Source of the DNA: a virus
Length of the DNA: 64,000 bases
Direction: 5' to 3' (one strand)
IMG/VR virus record: IMGVR_UViG_3300025759_000064
Coordinates: 32,001-96,000 of that record
Numbering within the stretch: position 1 is the first letter of the stretch; every line of letters begins with the position of its first letter. A program made the translations under genes and the position numbers. Positions 926-28,638 of this stretch are shown piece by piece. The notes beneath the pieces were generated by a model, which had not been told where the DNA came from, made no database searches, and was given only the letters and a program-made list of their open reading frames with translations.

Positions 926-936
926 GACATTCCCTC

Positions 937-1083: not shown

Positions 1084-1085
1084 TC

Positions 1086-1819: not shown

Positions 1820-1828
1820 TCTAAAGCC

Positions 1829-2206: not shown

Positions 2207-2231
2207 TTGCGTGTATGCGATGCTACTTTAA

Positions 2232-3962: not shown

Positions 3963-3963
3963 A

Positions 3964-5106: not shown

Positions 5107-5194
5107 TTTAAGAACTCCAGTACACCCAATTCTCTATCCAAAAAGTATTATTTTCCCATTCATCTTTCATTATTGTATCATTCATCTTCTTCAC

Positions 5195-6676: not shown

Positions 6677-7338
6677 AAATACTCCTGTCGTAAAGCATTC
6701 ATTGGATGGTAATTATTACTATCATTAAACCAATTTTGGTCTTTACTCTCCTGTCGTAGAGATTGCATAGCAGCATTAGTCGGTGACGGTGACTCTTCTT
6801 CTGTAAACTCATCGTCTACTATCTGACGAGGAGGTGGTAATTGTTTTGGAGATGCGATTGTAGATACAGTAGTATTATTCTCAGGTGTACCCATTCCTTT
6901 CCCTCTTCTTACCCCGATTTGTGCTCCTAAAGTAGTAGAATACGGTTGTGCGGTTCGCCCCCCAGTATAAGCAGCAGTACCTATATTCGCCATCCCACTA
7001 AAGTCAAGCGGTTCACCACTAGAACTCAAATTGTAAAATGTGCTAAGACCGCCTAACCCAGCACCTGCATATAGACCCGCTCTGCCTAATCTTTTAGCCC
7101 ATTTTTCTCCATGTTTACCTTGTTCGACAGTGGCAGTACCATCTGTGGGTAATGCTCCGGGCGATGTAACGTTGCCCTGTTTGTCATACGTTCCATAAAC
7201 TGCATCCTCAGGTGTAACCCAATTTGGTAGATTATACATGACATTACCAAAACCACCTCCCGATTGACCACCACCCATCATAAAGGCTGACGATGGATTA
7301 GCACCAGCGTCTTTTCTAATAACGTAAACTTTACCCAT
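6673..7338 (-). CDS. Gly-rich putative internal virion/ejection protein
   Basis: 221 aa with a glycine-zipper-like hydrophobic stretch GLYAGAGLGGLSTF; late operon. Confidence 0.5.
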   Translation of the reverse strand: MGKVYVIRKDAGANPSSAFMMGGGQSGGGFGNVMYNLPNWVTPEDAVYGTYDKQGNVTSPGALPTDGTATVEQGKHGEKWAKRLGRAGLYAGAGLGGLSTFYNLSSSGEPLDFSGMANIGTAAYTGGRTAQPYSTTLGAQIGVRRGKGMGTPENNTTVSTIASPKQLPPPRQIVDDEFTEEESPSPTNAAMQSLRQESKDQNWFNDSNNYHPMNALRQEYL

Positions 7339-9765
7339 TTAGACACCCCCGAATGAAACCTTGACCACTTTAACTACTCTATCGGAATAGCCGTATGTCT
7401 TAGATATTCTCTCCCAATCGCCTTTAGTGTTTAATATTGTACTAACATCCATAGATGTGATGTCTAGCATTTTCGCTAAGTAAAGAATGTCTGTAATAGA
7501 ATCTACGCTTAAATTATTAGAAGGTAAATGCTTGATAATTTCATCATCTTTTCGAGCATCTTCTATTTGTAATATTTCTACTGCTTTAATTAGTCTATCC
7601 ATGGCGGCATTATGCCCATCTTTACTTTTAGTAGGATAGTCAGAAAGAAAACGTTGGTAGGGGTCACCCATATTTTGTTGAAACTCTCGTTGTCTCTGAG
7701 AAGATACTACACCAACTGGTGGTACTTGGGTTTCTCCGGGGTAAAGCACTTGCGCTTGCTGAGGATGGTATTGTGGTCGAGGTAATCTAGACATTACATT
7801 TTGTACTGTTTCAGGAGACGCATAACCAAACTTTGCTCTCATTTGTTGGTCAGGAGTTATTTTTTTATTTGCAACTAATTGACGAAAGTGTTCTGTATTT
7901 GGGTCTACTTGCAATTGTGCTCTTCTTGCAGCATCGCTTAGTGGTGGTGGCGCACCACTAGTTGCAGCCGGAGGTGCACCGCCGGAAACTGGAACAGGTG
8001 CACCGGATATACCTTTTTCTTTACCCGGTTGTGGTTTTAATGTGGTTTCTTCGGGTTGCATAGATGCGCCGACTGGTGACATAGATGATGTCATGTCTGA
8101 ATATCTAATGTGTTCTGGCACACCTAATTGCCCCCTATCTTCGTGTGTACCTCCTTGAAGTATATTGTCTACAATTGGTTGTAATTGCTGTAATTCTTCT
8201 TGTGAAGGTATTTCTTTTCTTTCATGTCCCCCCGCTATGGTGTGGCTATGAAACAAATGGTCTAGCATTATTTTTACATTAGGCGCAGCCGCTCTTGTTT
8301 CAGGAGTATCATACAATCTAATTTTTGCCGCTTTCAAATCTTCGGGCGATAAATCATCTTCTGCATGATTGATTCCCTGAGATGCTGCAAGCACAACATT
8401 ACTCCATGCGTCTTTTGCTCTATTATGATGACCTATACCTCCTCTTACTTGATGTTGCTTATACGCTTCAATTTTTTCAGTATGGCTCATAAAATGGTCA
8501 AGCCCTTTTCCTTCTTCTGCTGTATCTCCATATCTCTGCCCATATAGATGATTCATTTTTCCAACAGTTTGACCTGCTTGTTTTATACTCCCATCTTCAT
8601 TAAACTTAGGATTTCTATTTTCACCGTAAACTGCTTGAAACGCTGGAAACTGAGATAAATAATTAGCCGCTTCTAATTGTCCTTGAGGTGTTTGTAATAA
8701 TACTTTTAGCGGCTTACCGTTTATTTCACCGGGTATATTTGCTAAATGTTTCATAGCCCCTGCGCTATCAACTATCAAGTTATTAACAACCCCTTCTCTA
8801 TTTTTCCCAGTTACTAAAGCCATGTGATGAAGAAAACTATCTACTGTTTGTTTTCTTGTTTGTCTTTTTCCACCCGGTGCTGCATCAATTTGAGGTATGT
8901 AGTAAACGTTAGGATAATGATGGGCTATTCCCCAAGATGTAATATTTTGAAAGGCTCTACTATCAGGTATTCTACTACCCCATTTTAATCTTTGACTTCC
9001 GTGTAATCTATCACCATCTAATTTACCTGAGTCTATCGAATTAGCACCAAACTGCATCCCACCTTTTCCATCAGGAACTAAATGTAATCTATGTGGTTTT
9101 ACATAAGGTTTCTTTACCCAACTATGTTTTTGCGGATTAGGATGTCCCAGTTGTGCCATAACTTCTCCAAGTTGTTTATTGAAAGGTATAGCATAAGATT
9201 CTAGATAAGTGCCACTTCTATGATTATCGCCGTGTCTATTAGTATACGTTGTAATTAAATTACCATCTTGAGTATAATTACTTCTTACTCTATGGTCTTG
9301 TTCCGTTAATGGTGCTAAATGCATTTTTCTCCAACCAACGCTATCTACATTAGGTAAATGATTGTCTTCTTTATGGTTTTGATTATGCATATCTATGGCT
9401 TTTTGAATTACATCTTTTGCTGGCGCTTTTATTCCATGTTCTAACAAAGAGTCCCCAACTGCACGTATTATTCCGTCAATACCATGCATGTGTTCTCCGC
9501 CGGATTCATCAGCGTATATTTGTTCTCCATGCATACCTGTTTTCCAATCACCGGGAAAAACGTGACCCATTCCGGGCACCCCCGTTTCTTCTTCCGAGTG
9601 AGCGCCAGTGTGAGCAAACGCTGGAATATCAGGCATATTTGGGTCTCGGTTATGAGCCTCAGGCGGTGGGAATCTTAGAGGATTCATTTTACCTGCAAAT
9701 AAACTATAATTACCATCGCCCTTTCTAAGTAGAAGAGATTTCATAATTATAGAGGATTTAATCAT
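7339..9765 (-). CDS. Large His/Pro/Gln-rich putative virion protein
   Basis: 808-aa ORF in the late operon; no recognisable catalytic motif. Confidence 0.6.
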   Translation of the reverse strand: MIKSSIIMKSLLLRKGDGNYSLFAGKMNPLRFPPPEAHNRDPNMPDIPAFAHTGAHSEEETGVPGMGHVFPGDWKTGMHGEQIYADESGGEHMHGIDGIIRAVGDSLLEHGIKAPAKDVIQKAIDMHNQNHKEDNHLPNVDSVGWRKMHLAPLTEQDHRVRSNYTQDGNLITTYTNRHGDNHRSGTYLESYAIPFNKQLGEVMAQLGHPNPQKHSWVKKPYVKPHRLHLVPDGKGGMQFGANSIDSGKLDGDRLHGSQRLKWGSRIPDSRAFQNITSWGIAHHYPNVYYIPQIDAAPGGKRQTRKQTVDSFLHHMALVTGKNREGVVNNLIVDSAGAMKHLANIPGEINGKPLKVLLQTPQGQLEAANYLSQFPAFQAVYGENRNPKFNEDGSIKQAGQTVGKMNHLYGQRYGDTAEEGKGLDHFMSHTEKIEAYKQHQVRGGIGHHNRAKDAWSNVVLAASQGINHAEDDLSPEDLKAAKIRLYDTPETRAAAPNVKIMLDHLFHSHTIAGGHERKEIPSQEELQQLQPIVDNILQGGTHEDRGQLGVPEHIRYSDMTSSMSPVGASMQPEETTLKPQPGKEKGISGAPVPVSGGAPPAATSGAPPPLSDAARRAQLQVDPNTEHFRQLVANKKITPDQQMRAKFGYASPETVQNVMSRLPRPQYHPQQAQVLYPGETQVPPVGVVSSQRQREFQQNMGDPYQRFLSDYPTKSKDGHNAAMDRLIKAVEILQIEDARKDDEIIKHLPSNNLSVDSITDILYLAKMLDITSMDVSTILNTKGDWERISKTYGYSDRVVKVVKVSFGGV

Positions 9766-11642
9766 GGAGTTCTACCGCCTCGACTTGTTAAGTGGTCTAA
9801 AGGGTTGATTCCAAAAGTACGAGGGTCATTAGTTGCATCTTCCGTTGCACCTTCCGGCCTAGTAGTTTCTTTAGTGGGCGCATTATTATGCGCTGGTAAA
9901 TTACTAGCAGAACCTACGTTTGAATCACCTTTACCTTTTTTCTTGGTTTCTTTTCTTTTCATCGCTCTTCGAGCGTCGTTAACGAGTTGGCGAAGTTCGG
10001 CCATGTCATAGTATGATAGTCCCCGCTTTTGTAATTCGCTACCTTCTCCAACTTCACTAGTCATCACAGGTGCACCTTGTATAGCAGAACTAGGTAATCT
10101 AGGTCTGTAAGTTGGACTCTGACCGGACATACCCTGAACACCAACGCCCATTCTTGGTTGCGACATTACAGGTGGACTAGGTATACTAGGCGATGGTAAT
10201 GTAGCCCTGCGCGGTGAAGATGGGGGCATTAGTGGTGGTGGTCTAATAGACCTAAGTGCAGGTCTTCTCATTTGTTGCGCTTGTCCGGGTAGTAAACTTT
10301 GCAATGTACCACCGCCAGTCAAACCTGCTTTGTAAGAACGTGCACCGAATCTTGACGGTGTAGATGAAACGGTTCGTATGTTACCTAAACGCTTTCGTGC
10401 CTCAGATTGACCGAGGTATTGTCTGTATCTTTGTACATCTTTAGACATAGGTTGTTTAGTTTTTACACCCCTGTGAGACATTTCGACAGCAAGATGCGCT
10501 CTACTTAATCCAGTTTTCTTCCCACCAGCAATACCACGCATTCTAGCCTTGGCTCTTCTAGATGTAGCACTGCCGGGTGTCATTCCGCCCGGTGGTCTCT
10601 TGAACTCACCAGTTGAAGGTCGCCATTTCTTCTGCCTTTCTTTATGTGCTTTTCTTGCTTTTGCCCCTTTCTTTCTTTTCGGCTTTTTACCTACAAAGCC
10701 CTGTCTCTCGCTTTTGAGTAATTGAAATGCTATTTCTATGGGATTACCTTTCAAATCACCCATCATTGACTGGTCAAAAGACGGTTGTGAGTTTTTATGT
10801 TTCAACGCTTTCAGAGTAGCCATGTACATACTCATATTAATCACTGCTAAATCTTCGTGATTCATGTCGTGATAATTAGTTTGATTTCTCATATTTTGTA
10901 AAAGGTTATTAGCAGGGTCTGACAATTGCCTTGGAGCACCTCGCGGAGAACGACTCATCACCATGTAATCATGTAATAGTTTCAAATCACTTTCAGTTTC
11001 ACGCAATTGAGGCTCAAATGCCGCAACACCTTCATTGCTTCTTGTCAACTCATTTACAGCATCGTCATGGTCTTGTACCATTGGATGATTTACATTCATG
11101 TGTAAGAGTGGATATCTGTTTTCATCAAATGAGTTACCAAACATACTCATCTCATTTATATCACCATCTAAATATGACTGTAAATGTTCATCTTTGTATG
11201 CTTTTAATAATTGGAATGCTATTTCCATAGGTTCTCCCATGGCAAAGTTCTGCCCTCCGGCAAAACCCGGCCCTCTAGCCTGATTTGCTAAACTTGTAAG
11301 TGCGCCGTAATTACCCGGAGTACCAGTCATCAAAGATGGCTCTAACTCATTATCAAACTTAGTAGGTTGTAAATCTTCATCTTCATCTTCAACGGCAGGT
11401 AAGTCAGCAGTTGTAATAGAAAGATGTTTTAATCGCTTCATTTCATTTGCTCTATCTTTACGTTCTTGTTTTTTACGGTCAATACGAGCATCACGATGTT
11501 CTGTATCTTCTCCGCCGTATGCACCTTCTTCTTCGTGATTTGCGCGGAACATGTGAGAAGATTCACTTCTCGGTCCATACATTCGCGTATCGCTACCCGT
11601 ACTTGTCATACCTGATTTTAGAATACGCACAGGTTTACTCAT
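9762..11642 (-). CDS. Large low-complexity basic putative virion polyprotein with two PxEIAFQLLK repeats
   Basis: ORF track gives 9762..11657; ATG at 11642 preferred (GGGGG SD). Motif copies at 11202-11231 and 10713-10742. Confidence 0.65.
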   Translation of the reverse strand: MSKPVRILKSGMTSTGSDTRMYGPRSESSHMFRANHEEEGAYGGEDTEHRDARIDRKKQERKDRANEMKRLKHLSITTADLPAVEDEDEDLQPTKFDNELEPSLMTGTPGNYGALTSLANQARGPGFAGGQNFAMGEPMEIAFQLLKAYKDEHLQSYLDGDINEMSMFGNSFDENRYPLLHMNVNHPMVQDHDDAVNELTRSNEGVAAFEPQLRETESDLKLLHDYMVMSRSPRGAPRQLSDPANNLLQNMRNQTNYHDMNHEDLAVINMSMYMATLKALKHKNSQPSFDQSMMGDLKGNPIEIAFQLLKSERQGFVGKKPKRKKGAKARKAHKERQKKWRPSTGEFKRPPGGMTPGSATSRRAKARMRGIAGGKKTGLSRAHLAVEMSHRGVKTKQPMSKDVQRYRQYLGQSEARKRLGNIRTVSSTPSRFGARSYKAGLTGGGTLQSLLPGQAQQMRRPALRSIRPPPLMPPSSPRRATLPSPSIPSPPVMSQPRMGVGVQGMSGQSPTYRPRLPSSAIQGAPVMTSEVGEGSELQKRGLSYYDMAELRQLVNDARRAMKRKETKKKGKGDSNVGSASNLPAHNNAPTKETTRPEGATEDATNDPRTFGINPLDHLTSRGGRTP

Positions 11643-12039
11643 GTTGAACCCCCGCAAAATTAAATGACGTTAACATAACAAGTTTTCCGATATTACGATA
11701 AAACAAAGGAACGGTAGATGGGGTAGTAAACTTTGTACCCATTTCTTCACAGTGTTCTAAATAATTATAGCAACTATGACGTATTTGTTCTCTTAACGGT
11801 AAAACAATTTCAGGTTCATCAGTATCATCTAATTGTTTCACACATTCTATAATATGCATTAAACTATCTTCATTAACTAGGACATTGGCTTCTTTGAATG
11901 CATGGTATCTAAAACGTTCTGTTACCTTGACACAATAATCAAAGAACAAAGGATATTGTGATTTTTCCATATTTTCACCCGATAAGAATGAAAGATAGCC
12001 CGGATGCTGTGTTTGCATTAAATCAACCACAGGTATCAC
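11635..12039 (-). CDS. Hypothetical protein
   Basis: 134-aa ORF, GTGA-coupled to the upstream gene. Confidence 0.6.
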   Translation of the reverse strand: MIPVVDLMQTQHPGYLSFLSGENMEKSQYPLFFDYCVKVTERFRYHAFKEANVLVNEDSLMHIIECVKQLDDTDEPEIVLPLREQIRHSCYNYLEHCEEMGTKFTTPSTVPLFYRNIGKLVMLTSFNFAGVQHE

Positions 12040-12719
12040 AGCACTTCCTCCATCTCTGCTTGTAATTTACTTTTAATTCTCTTCCAACTATCAGGACTTT
12101 CTTTTGCAAGTTCAACTTTTAGAATATTGATAGTTTGATTAACTTGTGTACCATCTGTTTGTGTACCCCATTTATCTTGAAAGCCAGTTAAATCTTTTAT
12201 TGATTCTCTTACTTCTTTATGTAAAGTAACTGCATTTCTTACAAAGCCTTCTTCATGCACACTACCTTCTTCCATCAATTCAGACAACTTGTTGTTTAAT
12301 TTTTCAACATTGCTTCTTAAAACAGTTATTTCATTTCCAACCGTAATTGCGACCTCAGTTGCTGCTGACCTTTGAACCAACGGCTGAAAGTGATGTTTCA
12401 TGTGATGATACACAGTAGTCTCCTTAATACCTAGTTCTTCTGCAATTAATTCAGATTGAGTACCATCGGAAAAGAATCGATTTTCATATTCTGCTCTATT
12501 CTCACTTGAACAAATTACGCAAGAAGGGTTTGCGGCCATATGGTATTGACCCATGTGATTACGGTAATGTCGGTCAGCAGTATTAGCCCTCCAACCCATA
12601 TCTTTATCCAACTGTTCACAGGATATTTCGCCACTTTTGATGGCCTCCTCAAGCACACTTCTGTCGTCACTTTGACAGAACGCGCATGAACGTTTCATAA
12701 CTGGCTCTCGCTCAACCAT
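12036..12719 (-). CDS. Tandem Zn-binding HTH protein, candidate terminase small subunit
   Basis: Two repeats of CxxC-HTH-HxxxH followed by a coiled coil; first gene of the operon leading to terL. Confidence 0.45.
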   Translation of the reverse strand: MVEREPVMKRSCAFCQSDDRSVLEEAIKSGEISCEQLDKDMGWRANTADRHYRNHMGQYHMAANPSCVICSSENRAEYENRFFSDGTQSELIAEELGIKETTVYHHMKHHFQPLVQRSAATEVAITVGNEITVLRSNVEKLNNKLSELMEEGSVHEEGFVRNAVTLHKEVRESIKDLTGFQDKWGTQTDGTQVNQTINILKVELAKESPDSWKRIKSKLQAEMEEVL

Positions 12720-12755
12720 GTGTGACCGGAATACTATGTGGTTAATCAGGGTTGC

Positions 12756-13016
12756 TTAGATAAACCGCGTTATTCTCTGATATATAGAGGTCAAGAGTAT
12801 AAAGGAAAAAAATACTCCCACCATATACATTGACATTTCTGATTGGCTAATATCAGCATTCTTGAATATTAAAATCCCCATGAACACAAGTATAGCACTA
12901 ATGAGTTGTACCATTACCATATCTACTATAACTTCTCTTTTTGGAGCAAGCATGTGCATTGACATATCTGCTATTTGTCTAGGTACTGGTACACCGAAAT
13001 TATTACTACCCATCAT
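12756..13016 (-). CDS. Small membrane protein (2 TM)
   Basis: Hydrophobic segments MVMVQLISAILVFMGILIF and MYMVGVFFSFILLTSIY. Confidence 0.7.
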   Translation of the reverse strand: MMGSNNFGVPVPRQIADMSMHMLAPKREVIVDMVMVQLISAILVFMGILIFKNADISQSEMSMYMVGVFFSFILLTSIYQRITRFI

Positions 13017-13660
13017 TATACTCTACCTCCTGTGAGGAAATTACGGAAGAAAGTACCACTACCTTGCGCTACGTTATTTATCAATCCGGGGTCTGCTAAT
13101 GCATTTGTTAATTGACTTTGTAGCATACTTTGTTGAGCATTTTGCAACGTTTGTTGTCTTTGATTATCTGCTTGTGCTATGGTTTGATTTACCATATTAG
13201 TCATAGAGTTCATTTGTGACATTACGTTTTCAGAACTCATAGTCTGTAACTCTGTTGGTAAACTAGCCACATCTAATTTGAATATTCCATTCTCTTCATC
13301 AAAAGTGTAATTAGCATTTTTTAACACATTTAGTAAAGAAAAAGTGTTTATCTGACTAATAACATCTAACAGCATAGGAAATAATTGTGATTGAAGAAAT
13401 CTCTCCACAGGGTAAGAAGTGTTTAACATCGTTAACAAAATCTCTGTATCACTAGGTGGTACAATGGCTTGTTGATTGTAAGGGTCTTGACCAGTAGCAC
13501 CCGCCCACGCTGCGCTTAGAGCACTCGGTTGCTGAGGTTGTTGATACCATTGTTGCGGTGGAGCGGTATATCCACTACCGTAATTTGTGTTAGGCGCTCC
13601 AGTTTGACTTAGATTAAGTGCGCTAGAAGCGGGTTGTTGATTATTCCAATTCATTGTCAT
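13016..13660 (-). CDS. Gln-rich hypothetical protein
   Basis: 214-aa ORF, coupled on both sides. Confidence 0.7.
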   Translation of the reverse strand: MTMNWNNQQPASSALNLSQTGAPNTNYGSGYTAPPQQWYQQPQQPSALSAAWAGATGQDPYNQQAIVPPSDTEILLTMLNTSYPVERFLQSQLFPMLLDVISQINTFSLLNVLKNANYTFDEENGIFKLDVASLPTELQTMSSENVMSQMNSMTNMVNQTIAQADNQRQQTLQNAQQSMLQSQLTNALADPGLINNVAQGSGTFFRNFLTGGRV

Positions 13661-14625
13661 TGCATACCCTCCAACACTGCTTCCGGTATCAACGGAGGGG
13701 GGTTTATGGTTTGAGCCTGTTGGTTTAGAATATCTTGGAATGCAATGTTAGGCGTAGTCATATCTCTAAGTTCTTTTTGAAACATTCTCATATCAAAAGT
13801 AATTGTCGTAATATCATTATCGCCGCTAACTGGATTAACGTAATGTTGCATTGTAATACCTTTACTTTTTCTTACATCTGCTGAAATCTCAGCAAAGAAA
13901 GGTTCGTATTTAGTAATCATAGGATGTATTGGACCTGTCTGCCCAGCAGTAATAGTAGAAACTGGTACAGTAACTATACTGACTCCTCTTTTTATCTTAT
14001 CACGAAATCGACTAGGTTTCATTTCATCTTCAACATCTTGCTGTTCTTCCCATTTACAAAGTAAATGATACAAATGTAAATGTTCAGGACAATAAGTTGC
14101 TCTCATTTTTCTACCACTTGTTACTCCTTCTCTTGCTATGAATGCTTCTGCCTCACCTGTAACTGGATTTTGCCAGTACATATCCCATAGAGTTTTACCA
14201 GTATCTTCATCACTTATTCTAGAATATAAATTATCATGTTGTATTAATTCTTTTACATTACATCCATCAACACAACAGACAGCAGTATCTTTGTTATACA
14301 TATATTTGCTGTGACGGAATAATCTACGAGGGTCAAATATGGAGCGTTTTGTTGGGCTTAATAATTTGTAAGCCTGACGAATATCTTGTTTTCTTGCTTT
14401 GTAAGGATTAGCGTGCCTCGATGGATAGAAGTTAACCTTAGGCACTTCTATGTTCTTTTCCATAGACATTCTTTGCATCTGTTGTTGTGCTGCTGCTTGT
14501 TCCATTAGAGCAGCATGACTAAAATTAGGATTACCTTGTTGTGATAAAGCCATTAATGTAGCATCATTCACTTGACCTAGATTCGGTTGCTGCTGAGAAT
14601 AAAACGGATTCATGTTCATTACCAT
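13657..14625 (-). CDS. Hypothetical protein with a putative Zn site (CCVDGC...YCPEH)
   Basis: ORF track gives 13657..14688; ATG at 14625 preferred (GGAGTGA SD, follows the stop of the AbrB-like gene). Confidence 0.7.
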   Translation of the reverse strand: MVMNMNPFYSQQQPNLGQVNDATLMALSQQGNPNFSHAALMEQAAAQQQMQRMSMEKNIEVPKVNFYPSRHANPYKARKQDIRQAYKLLSPTKRSIFDPRRLFRHSKYMYNKDTAVCCVDGCNVKELIQHDNLYSRISDEDTGKTLWDMYWQNPVTGEAEAFIAREGVTSGRKMRATYCPEHLHLYHLLCKWEEQQDVEDEMKPSRFRDKIKRGVSIVTVPVSTITAGQTGPIHPMITKYEPFFAEISADVRKSKGITMQHYVNPVSGDNDITTITFDMRMFQKELRDMTTPNIAFQDILNQQAQTINPPPLIPEAVLEGMQ

Positions 14626-14630
14626 GCGTA

Positions 14631-14810
14631 TCACTCCTGTGGGCTTACTGAAATAGACATTTCGCCATCTTTTACTATTAATGACCACTCTATTTTAGAG
14701 CCAGCAGACAAACCAAATTGCTCTACTATCCACATAGGAATAGTAGTTCTAAGAGAATTACTAGAGCCTCCTGTGGAGACTAAGGCTGTTGTCGACGTGC
14801 CCTTACCCAT
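14631..14810 (-). CDS. AbrB/MazE/SpoVT-like swapped-hairpin DNA-binding protein (59 aa)
   Basis: Manual translation MGKGTSTTALVSTGGSSNSLRTTIPMWIVEQFGLSAGSKIEWSLIVKDGEMSISVSPQE matches the SLRxTIP..I...GL..G..I.W pattern. Confidence 0.7.
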   Translation of the reverse strand: MGKGTSTTALVSTGGSSNSLRTTIPMWIVEQFGLSAGSKIEWSLIVKDGEMSISVSPQE

Positions 14811-14852
14811 GTCTCTCGCACACCCTACTCATCTAAAAGGTCACTGTTGAGG

Positions 14853-15578
14853 TCAGTAATCTACCATCTCTAATAATGTGTTTTCTACATTCCATCCTAT
14901 ACGTGTTGCCATGAAAGAACGTCTTGTTGGAATACCTGCTTTTTGTAATCTAATTAGGTCTTCTCTAAAAGGGTCAAATATCTTATGTTCTCCAATTCTA
15001 CCTTCTCTCCATAATTGAGCGGCCTTGTTATCAAAATATCTATCCGCTTTATTAGCAACTAGAAGAATCATTTTTGGTGCATACTTTTTCCCTTTTCTCC
15101 AACTTTTCCAATTTCTATATCTATAATTTCTTTCTATTATATTATCTACTAAAAATCTAAATCCACCTATTTGGGTTAAAGCATCGTCGCCACCTTTGAA
15201 AGCCCTATCATCAAACATAAATATCGCATATTCGCATTGTCTAGCGACCATATCATCTATCCAAAGATTCCAATATCTTTCTTCTCCACCTAAATCAGCA
15301 GAGTGAATAACTCTTCTCTCTCCTTCCCAACGCACTCTTTTACGTGTAGGTTTAGGTAAAATATAGCGAGTTATTAATTTGAAATGTTTAGTCCTTTCGT
15401 GTTCAGGTATTTCTTCCATTTCACCGGGCGTAGTCATATATTTGTCTAAAGTAGTTTTACCAACCATAGACGCGCCATATATTCCCACTCTTCTAGATTT
15501 CCAATTATTGTAGGCTTGTTTACCGTATAAGGCTACACCCACTAATATACTGCCGCTTGCCGCAACCATATCAATCAA
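14853..15578 (-). CDS. Ras-superfamily (Arf-like) small GTPase with an N-terminal hydrophobic helix
   Basis: G1 GASMVGKT, G3 DLGGEERYWNLW (compare Arf DVGGQxxxRxxW), G4 NKAD, G5-like MATRIGWNV. Confidence 0.85.
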   Translation of the reverse strand: MIDMVAASGSILVGVALYGKQAYNNWKSRRVGIYGASMVGKTTLDKYMTTPGEMEEIPEHERTKHFKLITRYILPKPTRKRVRWEGERRVIHSADLGGEERYWNLWIDDMVARQCEYAIFMFDDRAFKGGDDALTQIGGFRFLVDNIIERNYRYRNWKSWRKGKKYAPKMILLVANKADRYFDNKAAQLWREGRIGEHKIFDPFREDLIRLQKAGIPTRRSFMATRIGWNVENTLLEMVDY

Positions 15579-15862
15579 CTAAACTTATTTGTTAACCATG
15601 TTCCAAAGTCTGCTACTTTTTGATATACCCATTCAACTGTCATTTCCCATAAGTTCCAATCTGTATTGGCTTCCATTGCAGAAACAGCCATTGCTGCACC
15701 GACAGAACATAATATTGTTCTAATCCAACCCAGTCCCCATTCGTAGGTATTATCTACTGTATTTGCTAAATGCATAGCACGCAGTGTTTCTTCAACTGAA
15801 TCATCACCAACATTGCGAAAAATACGCAATGGAGAAGGAATTAACTGTCCGGGTAGTACCAT
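15575..15862 (-). CDS. Small membrane-associated protein
   Basis: 95 aa; hydrophobic WIRTILCSVGAAMAVSAM and an amphipathic Trp-rich C-terminus. Confidence 0.65.
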   Translation of the reverse strand: MVLPGQLIPSPLRIFRNVGDDSVEETLRAMHLANTVDNTYEWGLGWIRTILCSVGAAMAVSAMEANTDWNLWEMTVEWVYQKVADFGTWLTNKFS

Positions 15863-15873
15863 ACTGCTTTACC

Positions 15874-16539
15874 TCAGGAGGCTTTGTATCTTAAATCCGG
15901 CGTACCGTCTTTCTTTAATCGCTGATTTGTTGGTTGCCCATCTCTTGGTGGTATAGGTAATGTTCGTGGAGGTAAGTTAGACTGGCTTGTCATTGCATCT
16001 ACTGCTCTTTGTGTATTCGACAAACCTAGATTCATCGGTGCTTCTTTTTGTGCAGAATGAGTAGGTACTCCAAATGGATTAGCGGTGTTATGATAATCAC
16101 CAGCGACACCATCGGATATATTACTACCATTAAAGAACTGACTATTTTGCATTATTCTACTAGGGTCTTCTTGCATTAAACGTAATTCATGTTCTAATTG
16201 TAATTCCATTTGTCTTAATTCTAAGTCTGCTCTACGTTGGTCAAAACCCATTTGTTGCTGTCTATACATGTTTTGTCTATTTCTTTGCATTTCAGCAACT
16301 TCTACTTTTTCTTTCATAGATTGTTCAAAGAACATTTTGAATAAGTAATAGGCTATTGTTTGTACTGCGAGCGCACCCATAGCATACGTCATTCCATTAA
16401 TAGTGGAATTAGCATTAGCCCCTGTTGGTAACCATAACCCTGAACTATACACTCCTACTGCTACTCCTACTAACGCAGATTGGGACAAAATTAGCCCTGT
16501 CATTTTCATTTCATTTGTATCTCCGATGTCTCTACTCAT
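15874..16539 (-). CDS. 2-TM membrane protein with a coiled coil and C-terminal KKDGTPDLRYK motif
   Basis: Two N-terminal hydrophobic helices, a Q/E/R coiled coil and a basic terminal motif. Confidence 0.7.
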   Translation of the reverse strand: MSRDIGDTNEMKMTGLILSQSALVGVAVGVYSSGLWLPTGANANSTINGMTYAMGALAVQTIAYYLFKMFFEQSMKEKVEVAEMQRNRQNMYRQQQMGFDQRRADLELRQMELQLEHELRLMQEDPSRIMQNSQFFNGSNISDGVAGDYHNTANPFGVPTHSAQKEAPMNLGLSNTQRAVDAMTSQSNLPPRTLPIPPRDGQPTNQRLKKDGTPDLRYKAS

Positions 16540-16586
16540 ACTGTGACCTCGCTCTAGCCCACGGTGGGGGTCATCTTAAGCCTTAT

Positions 16587-16670
16587 CTGTCCGAATATTC
16601 TAATGTCTTGTATATACATAAAGAATAATATGTACTATTGTATAGATAGACAATCGGAATCATCGGACAG
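16587..16670. repeat. Imperfect palindromic element, copy 1 (homologous to 62905-62978, partly to 26971-27086)
   Basis: CTGTCCGAATATTC...TACATA-N8-TATGTACT..TATAGA..GACAATCGGAATCATCGGACAG. Confidence 0.65.
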
Positions 16671-17136
16671 GCCATATACCTTCAGGTGCATATTTTTGCC
16701 ACATAGATTGAGCCTCAGGTGATTGGTCATTATCAGGGGTTAATGTTTGGTCATAATTAGATAACACTTCTGCCATAGTATCATAGAGATTTTTAGCATA
16801 TCCTCTTTGTCGATAAGGTTGTTCTGTTCTCGCATTCATAACACTGGTAGTGTTTCTATCGCCTAAAGTTCTAGCATTCATTCTATTCCTATCACTAATA
16901 TTCCCAGCGATATTTAATCTAGGTCGTGTTCTTTTCAAAGGTTTACCAAAATAAGTTCCACCGTTTTCTCGCCTTCTAACATCTATGTCTGTTTGTAATA
17001 TTTCATTAGTAACAGGGTCTTGAAAATCAGCAGCCCACGTATCGTGTTCGCCTGATGGTTCAGATGTTACTCTTCTTAATGAATCGGGAATCATAGGCGC
17101 TTTGAGCACAATCCACGCTTGGTCGAAGGCGGTCAT
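16660..17136 (-). CDS. GNAT-family acetyltransferase with AFDxAWxxLK leader
   Basis: Acetyl-CoA motif A YRQRGYAKNLY and C-terminal QSPEAQSMW. Confidence 0.7.
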   Translation of the reverse strand: MTAFDQAWIVLKAPMIPDSLRRVTSEPSGEHDTWAADFQDPVTNEILQTDIDVRRRENGGTYFGKPLKRTRPRLNIAGNISDRNRMNARTLGDRNTTSVMNARTEQPYRQRGYAKNLYDTMAEVLSNYDQTLTPDNDQSPEAQSMWQKYAPEGIWPVR

Positions 17137-17351
17137 TGATTATCACTCCACCAAGTATCTACTTCAGGGTCATTCATCAAATCTTCATTAAAATAATAGA
17201 AATGCTTCTTGTAACAATCATCACATAACATTCTTGGAAAATCAACGCCATCATCAAGTGTATGATTCTGACTGTTTAACAAAGCACCACAATGTGAACA
17301 AGCGCCCACTTCTAATTTTAGCAAAGCCCACGCTTGGTCGAAGGGGTTCAT
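17133..17351 (-). CDS. Small Zn-finger protein with PFDQAWALLK leader
   Basis: CxxC...CxxC; ATG at 17351 (TGATG overlap). Confidence 0.65.
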   Translation of the reverse strand: MNPFDQAWALLKLEVGACSHCGALLNSQNHTLDDGVDFPRMLCDDCYKKHFYYFNEDLMNDPEVDTWWSDNQ

Positions 17352-17710
17352 CAGCAGTTCCACCGTTTGAGCGCTGCGCCCTTCGGTGTTAGTTTTCCAC
17401 CTTTACTGGTCGGTCCTTTGCTCCCACCCATTCTAGCACAGAATGACTTTCTTCTGTTTGCCGCTTTACTACCGGGTTTTAGTGAACTTGGTTTTTTAGT
17501 AACAGGTCTTTTCAAGTTTGCACCTGTCTCTCGCTTGAACTTTGCACGCCCTTTTGCATTTAGACCACCACTTCTGCTATGCCTGTTTGGATTGTAACCG
17601 TGAAATGGTTTTGATTTCTTTTTTGCTTTTTCAAACACAGAATCTAACAGTGCTACTGATGCTTGTTGCATAGGTGTGCAACAGTCACATGTGTCAAATC
17701 CCATAGTCAC
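17351..17710 (-). CDS. Basic protein, DUF6321-like (marine viruses)
   Basis: GGLNAKGRA...NLKRP...RRKSFCARM...LKRWNC signature, recalled from memory. Confidence 0.65.
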   Translation of the reverse strand: MTMGFDTCDCCTPMQQASVALLDSVFEKAKKKSKPFHGYNPNRHSRSGGLNAKGRAKFKRETGANLKRPVTKKPSSLKPGSKAANRRKSFCARMGGSKGPTSKGGKLTPKGAALKRWNC

Positions 17711-18015
17711 CGTAACACACCCACCATCTTAACAATTGTTGGCTTTCCGCCCACACCTTGCTTTTTTGCACGTTTTCTTTTTGTTGCTGCTTGCTTCTGA
17801 CCTGATGACATAGAACCTGATGTTTTTGGCGTTTTGCTTGAAACCTTGATTGATGGTCTGCATTTAGGATAACCTTTACTAGATTTATTTGCTTTACTTC
17901 TACCACACGGAGGATGCTTACCATCTTTAGTACGCGACACATCTACCCATTTTTCTTTGAACCAGCGATTTAGGTTCTTAACTACAAGAGTATCATGGCA
18001 AGTACATCGTGTCAT
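17707..18015 (-). CDS. Basic Cys-containing viral protein (LxRWFKEKWVD..CGR..YPKCRP family)
   Basis: Motif resembles widespread marine virus hypothetical proteins. Confidence 0.65.
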   Translation of the reverse strand: MTRCTCHDTLVVKNLNRWFKEKWVDVSRTKDGKHPPCGRSKANKSSKGYPKCRPSIKVSSKTPKTSGSMSSGQKQAATKRKRAKKQGVGGKPTIVKMVGVLR

Positions 18016-18173
18016 ACTACTCCTACCATTTTCTTAATACTCTTTTGTTTATCCATCAATGCGTAACAAGGACATTTAGGAGCGGATGCTGAACATTGAT
18101 TACCCTCAATCATACAAACGCAAGGCGTTTTACTAGTAGCCCCGCAACAACATTTGTCTTTCTTAAGTTTCAT
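18012..18173 (-). CDS. Small Cys-rich protein (53 aa)
   Basis: Manual translation MKLKKDKCCCGATSKTPCVCMIEGNQCSASAPKCPCYALMDKQKSIKKMVGVV; ATGA-coupled at both ends. Confidence 0.65.
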   Translation of the reverse strand: MKLKKDKCCCGATSKTPCVCMIEGNQCSASAPKCPCYALMDKQKSIKKMVGVV

Positions 18174-18340
18174 TTTTTCTTTTTCCCCTTAAACTTACCA
18201 CGACAATATTGAACAGCCCACCCGTTTGCATACGCAGATGGGTAAACATCGAACTTTTTCTTTGCGGCTGCTTTTCCAGCAGGGCATAGTTTTTTCCAAA
18301 CCGCATCCATACCAACACAATGACCGCATTCGCAACTCAT
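18170..18340 (-). CDS. Small basic protein (LCPAGKAAAK..F.VYPSAYAN family, 56 aa)
   Basis: Manual translation MSCECGHCVGMDAVWKKLCPAGKAAAKKKFDVYPSAYANGWAVQYCRGKFKGKKKK; ATGA-coupled. Confidence 0.7.
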   Translation of the reverse strand: MSCECGHCVGMDAVWKKLCPAGKAAAKKKFDVYPSAYANGWAVQYCRGKFKGKKKK

Positions 18341-19902
18341 TTTTTCACCTTAACCCTGCGAAGTGTACCTTTATTTTTGAAATGCCTTGCTCTATTTGAG
18401 TGTGCACTCTCTAAAGTTAATTTTCCACCTTGCGTGTGGCTGACATCTTTACCACCTTTTCCGTATATGCCCCGCTTCCTACGCTCTGTGTTTAATTGCT
18501 CACGATACTTTACACGCTTAGGTGTCTTTTGATATTGCTTGTCATACTCTAATTTGTGAGCAAATGCTGCTGGCGACTTGCGCTCTTTGAGCAACTGATA
18601 GGCTATGTCCATTGGTTCGCTGGCTAGTTTCCGATTTTTCCACTCAAAACGGGTAGTATATTCAGGATGGTCTTCGGGAAGCAACGACATTGGAGGACGT
18701 TCTTTACTTGGCTCAAGCCGTCTATATTCATTTTCAAAATGTCGTCTGTTCTCCCTTTTTTGTTTTTCATAATACCTATTGAACTCCTTTATTGAATCCC
18801 AATAGTCTTGTTCATTATAATCTTTTATATTTCCATATCCGTATAATCTTTCAGAGCCTTCATCTCGCTCGTATGGTTGGATATTGCTGAAATAATCATA
18901 TAACATATTTTCATCCATATCTTCGTCTTCCTGAATATTTTTAAGCAACTGGAGGGCTATGTCCATTGGACTACCTTTAGTCAATTCGTAGATTTCATCT
19001 TTAGTTTTACCATAAAATAAATTATGTAACTCATCTGCATCCATATCTTCTATCTTTTTTCGTTTAATCGGCTTACCCCAAGGTAAAGGTTTGTCGCTCC
19101 ATCTACTAATTCGGCCACTTGGCCTTCTGTCTGTATTACTAATATTACGACCTAAATTGGGAGTGCCCATCTCTAGTGTTTCGTCTTTATAATGTCGTCG
19201 CAATGGTACTTCAACTAAACTTTCACGTGGAATATTTTCATCATGCTCAATAAACGCTTCTGCTAAATCTTCTTTTGCTTCGTCACTATCTCTTCTGTGC
19301 ACTTTTCCGTATTTATCAAGATTTCCACGTACATAAACTAACTTATCGGGGGCATTATGGGTGTATAAATTATTAATATCTCCCATTGTATTATTTGAAA
19401 CCCAAGTTCCAGCCTTTGCATTTTTTAATCCAGCGAAAAGTTTTCGCGCGCGGGGATGATACTTACCATCTCTATGCGCACCTGCCATATAATACGGTAC
19501 ATTTGATATAGGGTCTTTCCTCCATCTCGAATTAGGGTCTTCCCAAACAGGGTCATTATCATGGGGTATTTCAGGAATCAGTGGTGGAAGTCTTGGGTCA
19601 CCTTCTTCATAGTTTATATTAGAGCCATCTTGCGGTACAGGTTCTCCCGCAGGTCTATGCGCCCCTTGTACACGAACAGCCCTAACGGGGTCCCATCCTT
19701 CCCAACCAGTTGTGTAATCTAATCTAGGGTCATGCATTGGCAACTTTGTTTGATAATTATTTTCAATTGTGTACTCCGGGTGATTTGGAAACAATTGCGC
19801 TCTTCTCGCTTGTTCCATCATATCCATATATTCTTTCGATTCTTTAATAGCCTCTTCATCTTCTAACGATTTTAGAAAAGCCCAAGATTTGTTAAACACC
19901 AT
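18337..19902 (-). CDS. Modular polyprotein: leader, ART-like domain, acidic module, HNH-like basic domain
   Basis: Start MVFNKSWAFLK. AVR...GTWVS...EAFI..IP ART-like pattern. PMDIAxQLLK repeats at 18940-18969 and 18586-18615. C-terminal KDVSH...LE..H.NRAR. Confidence 0.6.
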   Translation of the reverse strand: MVFNKSWAFLKSLEDEEAIKESKEYMDMMEQARRAQLFPNHPEYTIENNYQTKLPMHDPRLDYTTGWEGWDPVRAVRVQGAHRPAGEPVPQDGSNINYEEGDPRLPPLIPEIPHDNDPVWEDPNSRWRKDPISNVPYYMAGAHRDGKYHPRARKLFAGLKNAKAGTWVSNNTMGDINNLYTHNAPDKLVYVRGNLDKYGKVHRRDSDEAKEDLAEAFIEHDENIPRESLVEVPLRRHYKDETLEMGTPNLGRNISNTDRRPSGRISRWSDKPLPWGKPIKRKKIEDMDADELHNLFYGKTKDEIYELTKGSPMDIALQLLKNIQEDEDMDENMLYDYFSNIQPYERDEGSERLYGYGNIKDYNEQDYWDSIKEFNRYYEKQKRENRRHFENEYRRLEPSKERPPMSLLPEDHPEYTTRFEWKNRKLASEPMDIAYQLLKERKSPAAFAHKLEYDKQYQKTPKRVKYREQLNTERRKRGIYGKGGKDVSHTQGGKLTLESAHSNRARHFKNKGTLRRVKVKK

Positions 19903-19903
19903 T

Positions 19904-20122
19904 CTAAATCCATCCTGATGTCCTCTTTGATTGTTGTGTCTTAGGTTGTGACGTAGGTTGAGGCGGATTGGCTTGCATATTTCTTTTAGCATCTGCGTTT
20001 TTAGCCATTATCATGTCTTGTAGAGACATAAAGCGACCTGAGCCGGGAGGATATTCGTGCATATCAATGGGGTCTGCTTTGAGAAATTGCCAAGCCTCAT
20101 TGAATGCGGTCAACCCAATCAC
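19904..20122 (-). CDS. Small protein with AFNEAWQFLK leader
   Basis: 72-aa ORF, coupled. Confidence 0.65.
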   Translation of the reverse strand: MIGLTAFNEAWQFLKADPIDMHEYPPGSGRFMSLQDMIMAKNADAKRNMQANPPQPTSQPKTQQSKRTSGWI

Positions 20123-21264
20123 CTATTTGCAAAAACATCTTTTGGCATACGAGGTCTTGGTTTGTTAGGGTCTGCAAATCGTGGGTCACCCGGTCTAGGC
20201 GCACCACGTGGTTTTCGCATTTCAGGCATACCTTCCGCCATTATTGCAGCCCGTTCCGCTTCATTCATTTCCGCTTGGCGTGCATCTTCATCACCAAACT
20301 CAGGTTTACCGTATGGCGGTCCTAAATCTTCCCCATCATATTCAGGAAAACCTTCATCATCGTATCTACTTGGACCGGGCATACTATCTCTAGTGTAATT
20401 ATTCGCCCCTTTTCTATGTAAATCTTCGTCTATAAAACGTTGAGGAGACATATCAGGAAGATTTCGTGCTCTGACGTGTTCGGGTAAATTAGATATTCTA
20501 AAGTTTTGCTTCAACATTTCAAATGCTTTTTGCATAGGTTTACCCCTGCCGGGGATTCGATGTAGCATTTTTGAATTGATAAGTTCTTGTAATTTTGCCT
20601 CACTTGCTGCTCTTTTACCAAGTTTAGTGTTTTTTAACGCTTCTTGCAAAAATGGGGCATAATCATCCTTAAAATCCCGCACCTCTTTATTAGTTGGGTG
20701 TGTTTGTTGGTATGAGTAAGATTGTGGTGCTTTGGTTCTTCTTTGGTTATCTTTGTTAGCATAAGCATTCATTTGGTCCATAGGGTCATCTACACTTCCA
20801 TATGGCATACTATCGGCGTAGTACTCAGGGTGCATATCTAACGTTGGGGTTTTACCATCACGGTAATCTAATGCACTTTCATTTGCACGAAGATTCAGAT
20901 TTGGCAAGTCTGCATTTTCGTCATTATAACTACCTGATGTCAAATGGGGGTTTTCTTTCATGCGCCTCTGCATCATCCCATATATCGCAGGGTGTATAGT
21001 ACCCGCACCCTCTTGCCTCTCTCCGACATCAGGGCCTTCTCCTTGGTAAGTGATTTCTGCTAGATTGGCTCTGTCATAAGCAGGTTCAAACATTTGATGC
21101 TCAGGTAGCGCTTTCAAGGTCTGCCACGATTTCTTCATAGGCATAGAGCCGTATTTCTTCATGTTCGGTGTAGCGGCATCGGTGGGCTTAGTTTTCATTT
21201 TTGGCCCAATGCTGATAATTACAGCAACGCCCTTTTTCTTTTTCTTGTCTTTCATTTTAATCAC
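20119..21264 (-). CDS. Low-complexity putative virion protein with internal PMxxxW/FxxLK motifs
   Basis: 381 aa; PMKKSWQTLK and PMQKAFEMLK. Confidence 0.65.
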   Translation of the reverse strand: MIKMKDKKKKKGVAVIISIGPKMKTKPTDAATPNMKKYGSMPMKKSWQTLKALPEHQMFEPAYDRANLAEITYQGEGPDVGERQEGAGTIHPAIYGMMQRRMKENPHLTSGSYNDENADLPNLNLRANESALDYRDGKTPTLDMHPEYYADSMPYGSVDDPMDQMNAYANKDNQRRTKAPQSYSYQQTHPTNKEVRDFKDDYAPFLQEALKNTKLGKRAASEAKLQELINSKMLHRIPGRGKPMQKAFEMLKQNFRISNLPEHVRARNLPDMSPQRFIDEDLHRKGANNYTRDSMPGPSRYDDEGFPEYDGEDLGPPYGKPEFGDEDARQAEMNEAERAAIMAEGMPEMRKPRGAPRPGDPRFADPNKPRPRMPKDVFANR

Positions 21265-21266
21265 TT

Positions 21267-21614
21267 TTAATTTTGATATTGTGGATTATTTTGCTGGTAC
21301 GGTGGCCTTTCATGCTCAAATGGGTTTCTTTTAGCCTCAAATGGTTTGGGTTGATGAGGTTGGTAAGGGTTGTAAGGTAGGTTGTTATCATTTGGATTAC
21401 CTTGTCCGTATGGCGCATTTTGCTTCATTCTCTCCATGTACTCGTCCAAAGTTCGCTGTTTACCTTCTTTTGATGGAGAGGGGGCGTAAGGGTTAGGTTG
21501 AGGATTATTTCGGTAAGGTTGGTTAGATGGATTGGAAGGCATTGCTCGGTGGTATAAATAATTCGGGTTAGGTGCGCTTTTCAAAAACGTCCACGCTGTT
21601 TCAAATGCTGTCAT
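21267..21614 (-). CDS. Pro/Asn/Tyr-rich protein with AFETAWTFLK leader
   Basis: 115-aa ORF. Confidence 0.7.
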   Translation of the reverse strand: MTAFETAWTFLKSAPNPNYLYHRAMPSNPSNQPYRNNPQPNPYAPSPSKEGKQRTLDEYMERMKQNAPYGQGNPNDNNLPYNPYQPHQPKPFEAKRNPFEHERPPYQQNNPQYQN

Positions 21615-21874
21615 TCTCCTTGACCCCCTCTAAATGACTCAAACCATTCGGGATGGTTCTGTCTGTAAAAATCAATTATTTTAGCATCTTCTTCGTGGTC
21701 ATCTATTTTTTCACGTAATTTTGAAGCCTTTTGCTTCTTTTTACGGCTATCAGACCTTGTTTTACCAGTTTGATTCAGTGCCTCTTCCATGTAACTTGGC
21801 ATATCGTGCTGCATAGCAACTTGAGAGGAGGGGGACATTTTTAGCACATTTATTGCTGCATCTATTGGATTCAT
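21611..21874 (-). CDS. Small protein with PIDAAINVLK leader variant
   Basis: ATG at 21874 after a GGTGA SD. Confidence 0.65.
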   Translation of the reverse strand: MNPIDAAINVLKMSPSSQVAMQHDMPSYMEEALNQTGKTRSDSRKKKQKASKLREKIDDHEEDAKIIDFYRQNHPEWFESFRGGQGE

Positions 21875-22055
21875 TTTATTCACCTTTTACGCATCGGCGT
21901 GGTAACTACGTGCACCGCTAGTAATGCGATATGTCTAATATGTTACGCTCTATCCTGAGGGCGTGGTGGCTTCCATTCCGCAGGGTCAAGTTGTTGTAAG
22001 TTCTTCTTCTTTCCACATTCATTACCTCAAAAAAAATAAGCAGACTGGTGGGAAT

Positions 22056-27408: not shown

Positions 27409-27548
27409 GTTTAACTTACTGCCCTAACTGTGGTTTGAATCCAAATCACCATCAGCCCGACGAACAACAAATATGGGAGAGCGACTATGTGAAAGAACAT
27501 GGTCTGTGCCACTATTGCGTTAATGTAGGAACAGGTGATGATGAATGA
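27405..27548 (+). CDS. Small Zn-finger protein
   Basis: MSLTYCPNC...LCHYC; ATGA-coupled. Confidence 0.6.
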   Translation: MSLTYCPNCGLNPNHHQPDEQQIWESDYVKEHGLCHYCVNVGTGDDE

Positions 27549-28574: not shown

Positions 28575-28638
28575 ATGAGTATACACAACGAGATAATGAT
28601 GTGGAGAAAACACATAGCAAAATGCAGAGAGCAAGATG

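Follow-up and report, generated by a model that had tools for sequence, protein, structure and literature searches.

A ten-residue peptide tag joins exchangeable protein modules in a magrovirus and is a candidate address label for the virus head

Three long open reading frames of an archaeal virus carry internal copies of one short peptide motif, which raises the question of whether these copies divide the products into separate modules, and of what such a motif might do there. The region analysed (the window) comprises 64,000 nt, positions 32,001 to 96,000 of the IMG/VR record IMGVR_UViG_3300025759_000064, a contig of 110,919 bp. The source virus is a magrovirus, a head-tailed virus of about 110 kb whose hosts are marine group II archaea; few archaeal viruses of the surface ocean are more abundant than magroviruses. 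The genome fits the published description of the group in size, major capsid protein (MCP), head module and replication block, that description being of genomes of ∼100 kb with a halovirus-like head module, a family B DNA polymerase and clamp loader in the replication block, and an MCP with ∼33% identity to those of haloarchaeal siphoviruses and little similarity to anything else (PMC5434244). The MCP encoded here, which has no propeptide, is 34% identical to that of HVTV-1; its closest relatives are those of haloarchaeal siphoviruses, and a search of a phage collection matched it to archaeal viruses only. The gene order agrees with that of HVTV-1, and the replication genes encode PolB, an RFC-like ATPase and an SNF2 helicase. 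The prohead protease is an HK97-type S78 enzyme (it matches Pfam Peptidase_S78) fused to the scaffold. The peptide NPEATFSILK at the end of its protease domain was considered as a self-cleavage site and rejected, since it aligns with the conserved S78 domain end in HVTV-1.

The six internal motif copies that an earlier, sequence-only reading of this DNA had listed were all present, and they share, as that reading had proposed, the register of an N-terminal leader peptide that heads nine neighbouring genes. The consensus of this tag, P-Phi-(D/E)-x-A-(W/F/Y)-x-x-L-K, spans 10 residues and corresponds to an amphipathic helix. A strict pattern, P[MIF][DENKQ]x[AS][WFYLI]xxLK, gave nine matches in the window and none in each of 100 dinucleotide shuffles. 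When the whole 110,919-bp genome was scanned with a profile derived from the motif, 15 sites scored at least 8.6 bits, while the next best reached 7.0; all 15 fall within 10.7–25.2 kb of the window and are on the minus strand. The domains downstream of the nine N-terminal copies belong to different or singleton similarity groups. The final Lys was invariant at 229 of 264 tag sites, the remaining 35 being mostly one-residue insertion variants with the Lys one place later; the residue that follows the Lys is variable. Conservation of the tag exceeds that of its flanks, even between proteins less than 40% identical. AlphaFold models placed every tag as an isolated helix within a low-confidence linker between modules, outside the domain cores.

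The first of the three long proteins (626 aa; 9762–11642; all features described here are on the minus strand) is a core magrovirus protein with 589 homologs. Its N-terminal module (11232–11642; 137 aa, net charge −5) is conserved in all orthologs and is followed by the tag PMEIAFQLLK (11202–11231; 19.6 bits; predicted helix at residues 137–150 in a low-confidence linker). A second tag, PIEIAFQLLK (10713–10742; 15.2 bits; predicted helix 301–312), precedes a very basic C-terminal module of 316 aa (9762–10712) with a net charge of +44 and a pI of 11.6. Between the two tags lies an optional module (10743–11201), predicted to form a helical bundle at residues 187–284 (pLDDT 60–83). The compositionally distinct insert of ∼160 aa that had been claimed at this place is indeed found, with 153 aa and a net charge of −10 beside the +44 C-terminal module. 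Most orthologs lack it and have a single tag, the insert and second tag being present in 14 of 119. A relative with 97% identity lacks exactly the 489 bp that lie tag-to-tag in ORF 9762–11642, and its only tag is a chimera of the two, with the crossover inside the tag. All 25 homologs aligned across the joint carry the tag or a variant of it there, including those missed by the simple pattern.

The 521-aa product of ORF 18337–19902 has three modules, an N-terminal leader and two internal tags. It starts with MVFNKSWAFLK, in which the leader is FNKSWAFLK (19870–19896; 9.2 bits; predicted helix 4–12). The first module (18970–19869; 300 aa) has an alpha/beta core folded at residues 55–285 (pLDDT 80–94) and is followed by the tag PMDIALQLLK (18940–18969; 17.7 bits; predicted helix 312–324, pLDDT <50). 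The acidic middle module (18616–18939; 108 aa) is variable, relatives having other modules or none in its place. The tag PMDIAYQLLK (18586–18615; 19.2 bits; predicted helix 431–441) then leads to a conserved basic last module (18337–18585; 82 aa, net charge +18), which elsewhere also occurs stand-alone, with or without a leader. The three modules had been read as ART-like, acidic and HNH-like. The middle one is acidic (net charge −9, pI 4.8). The modelled core of the first weakly resembles the ADP-ribosyltransferase fold: ART-fold proteins took most of the top ranks in the structure search, AvrPphF being the best match (Z 5.6), with MbcT (4.5), Tpt1, a diphtheria-toxin homolog, DarT, ParT and RES also matched, although the best Foldseek E-value was only 0.31, and the module had no match in Pfam. 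The HNH reading of the last module was not supported, as Pfam gave no match at E up to 1 and no PDB sequence matched better than E 0.7; its sole match was phrog_6437, a family of unknown function, and the model falls below pLDDT 50 across residues 480–521.

In the family of the 521-aa protein, whose members range from 338 to 960 aa, the first and last modules are kept while zero to two differing middle modules lie between them, giving the architectures first~last, first~X~last and first~X~Y~last. A tag of the internal type, MKPMDIAFQLLK, stands at the N-terminus in two relatives, L022 and P0252 (a 96-aa stand-alone last module), and the last module in P0334 bears a leader of the N-terminal type, MTAFDTAWRLLK. 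Because the register is shared, internal-type tags can be N-terminal and the same module can carry an N-terminal-type leader, the internal tag and the N-terminal leader are one and the same element: each internal tag serves as leader to the module behind it.

The third protein (381 aa; 20119–21264) consists of a basic 41-aa head, the tag PMKKSWQTLK (21112–21141; 16.1 bits), an optional module of 191 aa, the tag PMQKAFEMLK (20509–20538; at 8.6 bits the weakest copy) and a 129-aa module. The former tag was classed as internal because the 41 residues preceding it are conserved as protein in relatives. Among members of this family a module of about 190 aa has been gained or lost. The three long ORFs are thus strings of unrelated modules in which a tag precedes each downstream module; several independent modules per reading frame and a conserved site at each junction, the marks of a polyprotein, are both present.

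The same leader heads stand-alone genes nearby, each with a site in the profile scan: 16660–17136 (MTAFDQAWIVLK), 17133–17351 (MNPFDQAWALLK), for which a domain search indicated a zinc-ribbon-like domain, 19904–20122 (TAFNEAWQFLK), 21267–21614 (MTAFETAWTFLK), 21611–21874 (MNPIDAAINVLK), 23621–24280 (MNPFDQAWAVLK), 24277–24648 (MTAFDRAWAVLK), whose product weakly matches GNAT acetyltransferases, and 24645–25178 (MVNAFDIAWAILK). The domain encoded at 23621–24280 is an internal module in the multi-module protein of another virus (32% identity over 156 aa to residues 320–502 of P0024, E 9e-20).

A tag and the domain behind it therefore form a cassette that may stand alone, first, in the middle or last; the same module is found stand-alone with an N-terminal leader, or internally, in different viruses. 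Entire modules are present or absent between orthologs, the breakpoints falling within the motif, and among 8009 internal similarity breakpoints half lay within 5 residues of a tag, versus 7% for random points. Genomes whose 626-aa proteins are 97% identical do not share the same set of stand-alone leader genes, nor the same middle module in the 521-aa protein. Related viruses thus trade cassettes through recombination within the 30 bp of tag DNA. These indels and the predicted linkers bear out the structural part of the sequence-only reading, which saw fused exchangeable cassettes bounded by the motif. As for what is exchanged, most modules have no recognizable function: Pfam searches of 78 diverse multi-module relatives gave very little: a zinc finger in three, DUF3293 in two and a DnaJ Cys-rich domain in one.

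What the tag does for the proteins is a matter of analogy. Most probably it addresses proteins to the virus head for loading, and it may also be where they are cut. The tag helix would dock the module strings to one common partner, most likely on the inner side of the procapsid during assembly (scaffold-protease, portal or shell), as the targeting sequences of T4 and P1 DarB do; to this reading we give about an even chance of being right. More weakly, the HK97-type S78 prohead protease might cut after the invariant Lys, which would separate the modules, for instance acidic ones from the strongly basic C-terminal ones, so that they could be delivered with the DNA. Both functions are inferred from the analogies with T4, P1 and HK97, the invariant Lys and the position of the genes, which lie beside or inside the head-gene block: in four near-complete genomes the tag genes share the strand of the head genes and lie directly upstream of the terminase gene, and one genome has them in the interval from terminase to portal gene. 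The S78 protease of HK97 cuts at K103/S104 (PMC10275583), and here a tag ending in an invariant Lys and an S78 protease occur in the same genome. Against cutting, the residue behind the Lys varies from site to site, and the scaffold, the MCP, the portal and an 1820-aa head-block protein contain no tag-like site. One protein family among the relatives has the tag at its C-terminal end, where cutting would release nothing, so docking fits this family better than the release of a downstream module. Against head loading, the tag genes are promoter-proximal in a leftward gene block and could therefore be early genes; no receptor for the tag was identified.

A double role, in which the peptide would address modules to the procapsid and be cut after the Lys while its 30-bp DNA acts as a recombination joint, is a tentative possibility argued from the same analogies. 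Were it true, these would be real processed cargo polyproteins in an archaeal dsDNA virus, and any domain inserted at a tag would automatically be packaged, in an integron-like plug-in system for virion cargo.

The tag might instead be an uncut docking helix for another common partner. This could be a hub protein of the host, a chaperonin of the virus or a membrane site that the adjacent GTPase and membrane-protein genes serve, and multi-module proteins would then act as multivalent adaptors. The Phi-xxx-W-xx-L spacing is typical of generic groove-binding helices, e.g. the p53 helix bound by MDM2, and the tag has this spacing and occurs N-terminally, internally or C-terminally. Its genes are, besides being promoter-proximal, adjoined by a cluster of GTPase and membrane-protein genes, and some magroviruses encode chaperonins (PMC5434244). 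The location on the head-gene strand next to head genes (and, in one genome, in the terminase-portal interval) argues against such a partner, as do the very basic C-terminal modules, which suit DNA-associated internal proteins; no partner of this kind was identified. We regard this explanation as rather unlikely.

It is improbable that the tag matters mainly as DNA, that is, as a 30-bp recombination joint, maybe the target of a virus-encoded endonuclease, with the peptide as a passenger. The codons of 58 copies are strongly non-random relative to the flanks (CTC 74% versus 9%, GCC 55% versus 19%, TTC 78% versus 34%), which would suit such a joint, as would the crossover inside the tag of the 97%-identical relative and the concentration of breakpoints at tags. 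However, the peptide is retained through synonymous changes (ATA/ATC/ATT, CAA/CAG, TTG/TTA/CTG, AAA/AAG), and conservation at the amino-acid level holds for the Lys, for a small residue in position 5 and for the Pro that caps the helix; in N-terminal leaders this peptide pattern is encoded by other codons and built from other residues, and a joint acting only as DNA would not need a single reading frame. Last, and very improbable, the internal tags could be hidden gene starts, with Gly-Glu-Pro-Met encoding a ribosome-binding site plus ATG and the modules made as separate proteins, or relics of recent fusions: GGT-GAA or GGA-GAA precedes many internal tags with an ATG within, GGTG/GGAG-type sites occur at true starts of this genome, and split forms beginning at the tag exist, but codon spelling does not uphold this, since a ribosome-binding-like 4-mer precedes the ATG in only 33 of 85 internal copies, AGC-GAA and GGC-GAA are the commonest spellings and some copies have Ile in place of Met, while internal tags vary no more than the N-terminal leaders do, the opposite of decay.

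The docking of cargo in the head, the preferred reading, has its closest parallel in phage T4, where a capsid-targeting sequence directs the internal proteins IPI–III into the head and ends at the cut site of the prohead protease (Mullaney and Black 1996, as related in PMC9024508). The likeness lies in a short N-terminal peptide common to unrelated proteins encoded at a variable locus. T4 uses the gp21 protease, whereas the enzyme here is of the HK97-type S78 class and the host is archaeal, and the comparison implies no relation in sequence. Homology would call for a protease of the gp21 type and head genes like those of T4, but the protease is a Peptidase_S78 and the MCP is nearest to those of haloarchaeal siphoviruses. 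Unlike the T4 sequence, the magrovirus tag also recurs within long proteins as a module joint and, once, at a C-terminus; packaging and cutting, documented in T4, are putative here. Judged from sequence, it is an analogue of the T4 system, not a member of its family. T4 also packages and processes Alt, a protein of the ADP-ribosyltransferase class, and the first module of the 521-aa protein would be a candidate for a similar cargo.

In encapsulins, a short terminal peptide docks unrelated cargo enzymes inside an HK97-fold shell, much as proposed for the tag, but these peptides are extended, mostly C-terminal and uncleaved, and encapsulins are cellular nanocompartments, not viruses. The cut consensus of giant phages is a three-residue motif ending in Glu, neither a 10-residue helix nor a recombination joint between cassettes. 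In phiKZ and SPN3US the prohead protease processes numerous proteins of the head interior at a short consensus, some of them at more than one place (PMC7411985, PMC10052503). In phage P1, about 30 N-terminal residues of DarB suffice for capsid loading, both of this large anti-defence protein and of a reporter (PMC9024508), but this is the signal of a single protein, not family-wide, and without internal recurrence. No description of cassette exchange at T4-type targeting sequences was found in the literature searched, and tag-jointed proteins that recombine inside the tag would be a compact case of viral cargo evolution by cassette exchange.

A full-text literature search with the motif strings returned no relevant paper, the literature searched yielded no virion proteome for these uncultured viruses, and two magrovirus papers, one of them PMC5434244, are silent on the motif and on polyproteins. 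No credible tag was found in the scanned half of the HVTV-1 genome, head genes included, nor in the region of the cyanophage S-CBS2 genome that surrounds a homolog of the last module, which makes the tag system look restricted to magroviruses. Its exact DNA pattern is present in 41 stretches that belong to about 30 IMG/VR contigs. To our knowledge, nothing is known of how magroviruses take over their uncultured hosts. The common tag delimits a whole set of proteins that are shuffled rapidly and are candidates for injection or for a place inside the head, and would, if it is a loading signal, be a testable handle on them. It also provides a simple sequence rule for spotting such candidates in metagenomes.

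The 10-residue tag P-Phi-(D/E)-x-A-(W/F/Y)-x-x-L-K lies internally in three long minus-strand ORFs, 9762-11642, 18337-19902 and 20119-21264, encoding proteins of 626, 521 and 381 aa. The six internal copies listed by the sequence-only reading were all found where it had placed them, and, as claimed, they share a register with the leader M-x-(P/A)-F-(D/E)-x-A-W-x-x-L-K, with which nine genes nearby begin. A strict pattern gave nine matches in the window and none in 100 dinucleotide shuffles. The region belongs to a single virus contig of 110,919 bp (the window being its bases 32,001-96,000), and a profile made from 248 distinct tag copies found 15 sites of at least 8.6 bits in this whole genome, all on the minus strand between 10.7 and 25.2 kb of the window; the next best site scored 7.0 bits. 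Of 264 distinct copies in this virus group, 229 end in Lys, and the other 35 are mostly variants with one extra residue and the Lys one place later. The replication-block ORF 49154-49822 (+), outside the cluster and on the opposite strand, begins with a partial tag (MTIHDAWALLKEE; 5.1 bits), which could be a chance match or a stray member.

The tag genes adjoin the head genes and share their strand. In minus-strand order, small genes and the three long ORFs (25.2 to 9.8 kb) come first, followed by an 808-aa ORF (7339-9765), the terminase large subunit (5195-6676), an HNH-containing ORF and the portal (2232-3962). Past the left edge of the window the strand continues with an 1820-aa ORF, a fusion of an S78 prohead protease with a helical scaffold-like tail, the major capsid protein and the tail genes. 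In four near-complete genomes, tags were confined to the head-gene neighbourhood, with none elsewhere; in one genome the tag genes lie between those for terminase and portal. The capsid protein is of the SU10/HK97 type and shares 34% identity with its counterpart in the haloarchaeal siphovirus HVTV-1; all its matches in the phage collection were archaeal viruses. The order of the head genes also agrees with HVTV-1. The plus strand encodes a family B DNA polymerase, an RFC-like clamp loader and an SNF2 helicase. Capsid protein, gene order and replication genes together constitute the published signature of the magroviruses, viruses of marine group II archaea (PMC5434244). The 1820-aa ORF (genome bases 27511-32973 (-), between portal and protease) gave only a faint ligase-like match in Pfam, and an ORF of >5068 aa (genome bases 2-15205 (-)), left of the window, runs off the contig end; HVTV-1 likewise has large ORFs at this position.

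Relatives drawn from IMG/VR and from the protein collection were compared across the tags, at which modules had been expected to be gained, lost or swapped; all three families bore this out. The family of the 626-aa protein has at least 589 members. When 25 of them, some distant enough to escape a simple pattern, were aligned across the joint, every one had the tag or a variant (SEPMNVGVRLLK, SEPMDDAWSELLK) there; the module on its N-terminal side is conserved, and the one on its C-terminal side is very basic. Most members have one tag, an insert plus a second tag being present in 14 of 119. In a relative with 97% identity in the flanks, exactly 489 bp are absent, tag to tag, and the single remaining tag is chimeric: its 5′ part is spelled like the first copy and its 3′ part like the second. 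Members of the 521-aa family (338 to 960 aa, up to four tags) retain the first module and the last, basic module of 90 aa; in between, some have nothing, some a single module of one or another unrelated kind, and some two modules. A genome 97% identical in the 626-aa protein has another middle module in its 521-aa homolog. The 191-aa module between the two tags of the 381-aa protein is missing in relatives. High-identity alignments among family members gave 8009 internal ends, of which half fell within 5 residues of a tag, versus 7% of random points (median distance 5 versus 66 residues). Residues after LLK track the downstream module and those before G-E-P the upstream one; the junction therefore lies inside the tag. 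Cassette architecture and tag-centred exchange are very probably real.

An internal tag is the leader of the module downstream of it. A domain that has its own gene and N-terminal leader in one virus can be an internal module in another; the gene 23621-24280, for instance, matches residues 320-502 of the related protein P0024 (E 9e-20). Four arrangements were seen for the last module of the 521-aa protein. It ends multi-module proteins, it stands alone behind an internal-type tag (P0252, MKPMDIAFQLLKERK...) or behind an N-terminal-type leader (P0334, MTAFDTAWRLLK...), and in cyanophage-like sequences it has no leader. In two relatives (L021 (G001) 12880-13250; L023 8102-8458) the tag stands at the C-terminal end, not the N-terminus, of one small protein of a ∼120-aa family (SSVAFSLAWNLLKSE, 11.1 bits). 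This conserved basic module (phrog_6437) has leaderless stand-alone homologs in marine cyanophages, among them Synechococcus phage S-CBS2 gp045 (L032 5959-6273); it has therefore passed between viruses of bacteria and viruses of archaea.

An AlphaFold model of the 521-aa protein (36 sequences, mean pLDDT 62.6) contained one well-folded core (residues 55-285), the three tags forming isolated helices (4-12, 312-324 and 431-441) in low-confidence linkers. The model of the 626-aa protein (64 sequences, mean pLDDT 51) was mostly of low confidence; in it the tags are helical (137-150 and 301-312), and a helical bundle (187-284) makes up the optional insert. No tag lay in a domain core of either predicted model. 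Structure matches to the 521-aa core were weak throughout; ADP-ribosyltransferase-fold proteins filled most top ranks, AvrPphF coming first (Z 5.6), followed by MbcT, Tpt1, a diphtheria-toxin homolog, DarT, ParT and RES. Module charges alternate: -5, -10 and +44 in the 626-aa protein, and -8, -9 and +18 in the 521-aa protein.

The tag is a conserved, helix-forming, position-tolerant peptide that marks where exchangeable modules start. The proteins that carry it may dock through it to a single partner, the simplest candidate being the procapsid interior, for which the capsid-targeting sequences of T4 and P1 are precedents (PMC9024508); we give its being a capsid address an even chance. That the tag might also be cut, the S78 protease cleaving after its invariant Lys, is a more tentative proposal, and less likely than not. 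The HK97 protease cleaves at K103/S104 (PMC10275583), and the capsid protein of this virus has no propeptide, so the protease's only obvious substrates would be its own scaffold tail and the tag-bearing proteins. Points against are that neither the scaffold nor the capsid protein had a tag-like site, that the residue following the Lys varies, and that some relatives have a C-terminal tag. Internal tags as hidden gene starts were rejected, since their Gly-Glu-Pro-Met context lacks a conserved ribosome-binding site: a 4-mer resembling one was present in only 33 of 85 copies, AGC-GAA and GGC-GAA being the commonest spellings.

The tag carries signal at both the peptide and the DNA level. The peptide is kept despite synonymous changes and the differing wording of N-terminal leaders. 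Codon choice in 58 internal copies departs strongly from that of the flanks (CTC 74% versus 9%, GCC 55% versus 19%, TTC 78% versus 34%, CCA 72% versus 31%), which fits copies being spread and homogenised via recombination at the tag. An N-terminal targeting peptide common to variable internal proteins is already known in principle from T4. A literature search found no description of one tag as the in-frame joint of multi-module proteins, of recombination inside such a tag, or of such a system in an archaeal virus with an HK97-type protease.

The tag-gene cluster is divided in two by a small GTPase-like ORF (14853-15578 (-); weak Roc match, E 0.007) with membrane-protein ORFs on both sides, and a putative 238-aa Ala-rich ORF (21963-22679 (+)) lies mid-cluster on the opposite strand. 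The rightward gene block starts with an ORF (28683-29630 (+)) fusing an ArdC-N anti-restriction domain to a zincin-like metallopeptidase (Pfam E 5e-27 and 5e-19). Several proteins begin with a second short pattern, hydrophobic-x-hydrophobic-(K/R)-K-(S/A), possibly a degenerate form of the tag or an alternative to it; examples are MSKPVRILKSG at the start of the 626-aa protein (11610-11642 (-)) and MSPKYIAVKK or MPPNFVAVRK in relatives that have the first module without its FNKSW leader. It was noted, too, for the related proteins P0025-P0045 and the 808-aa ORF.
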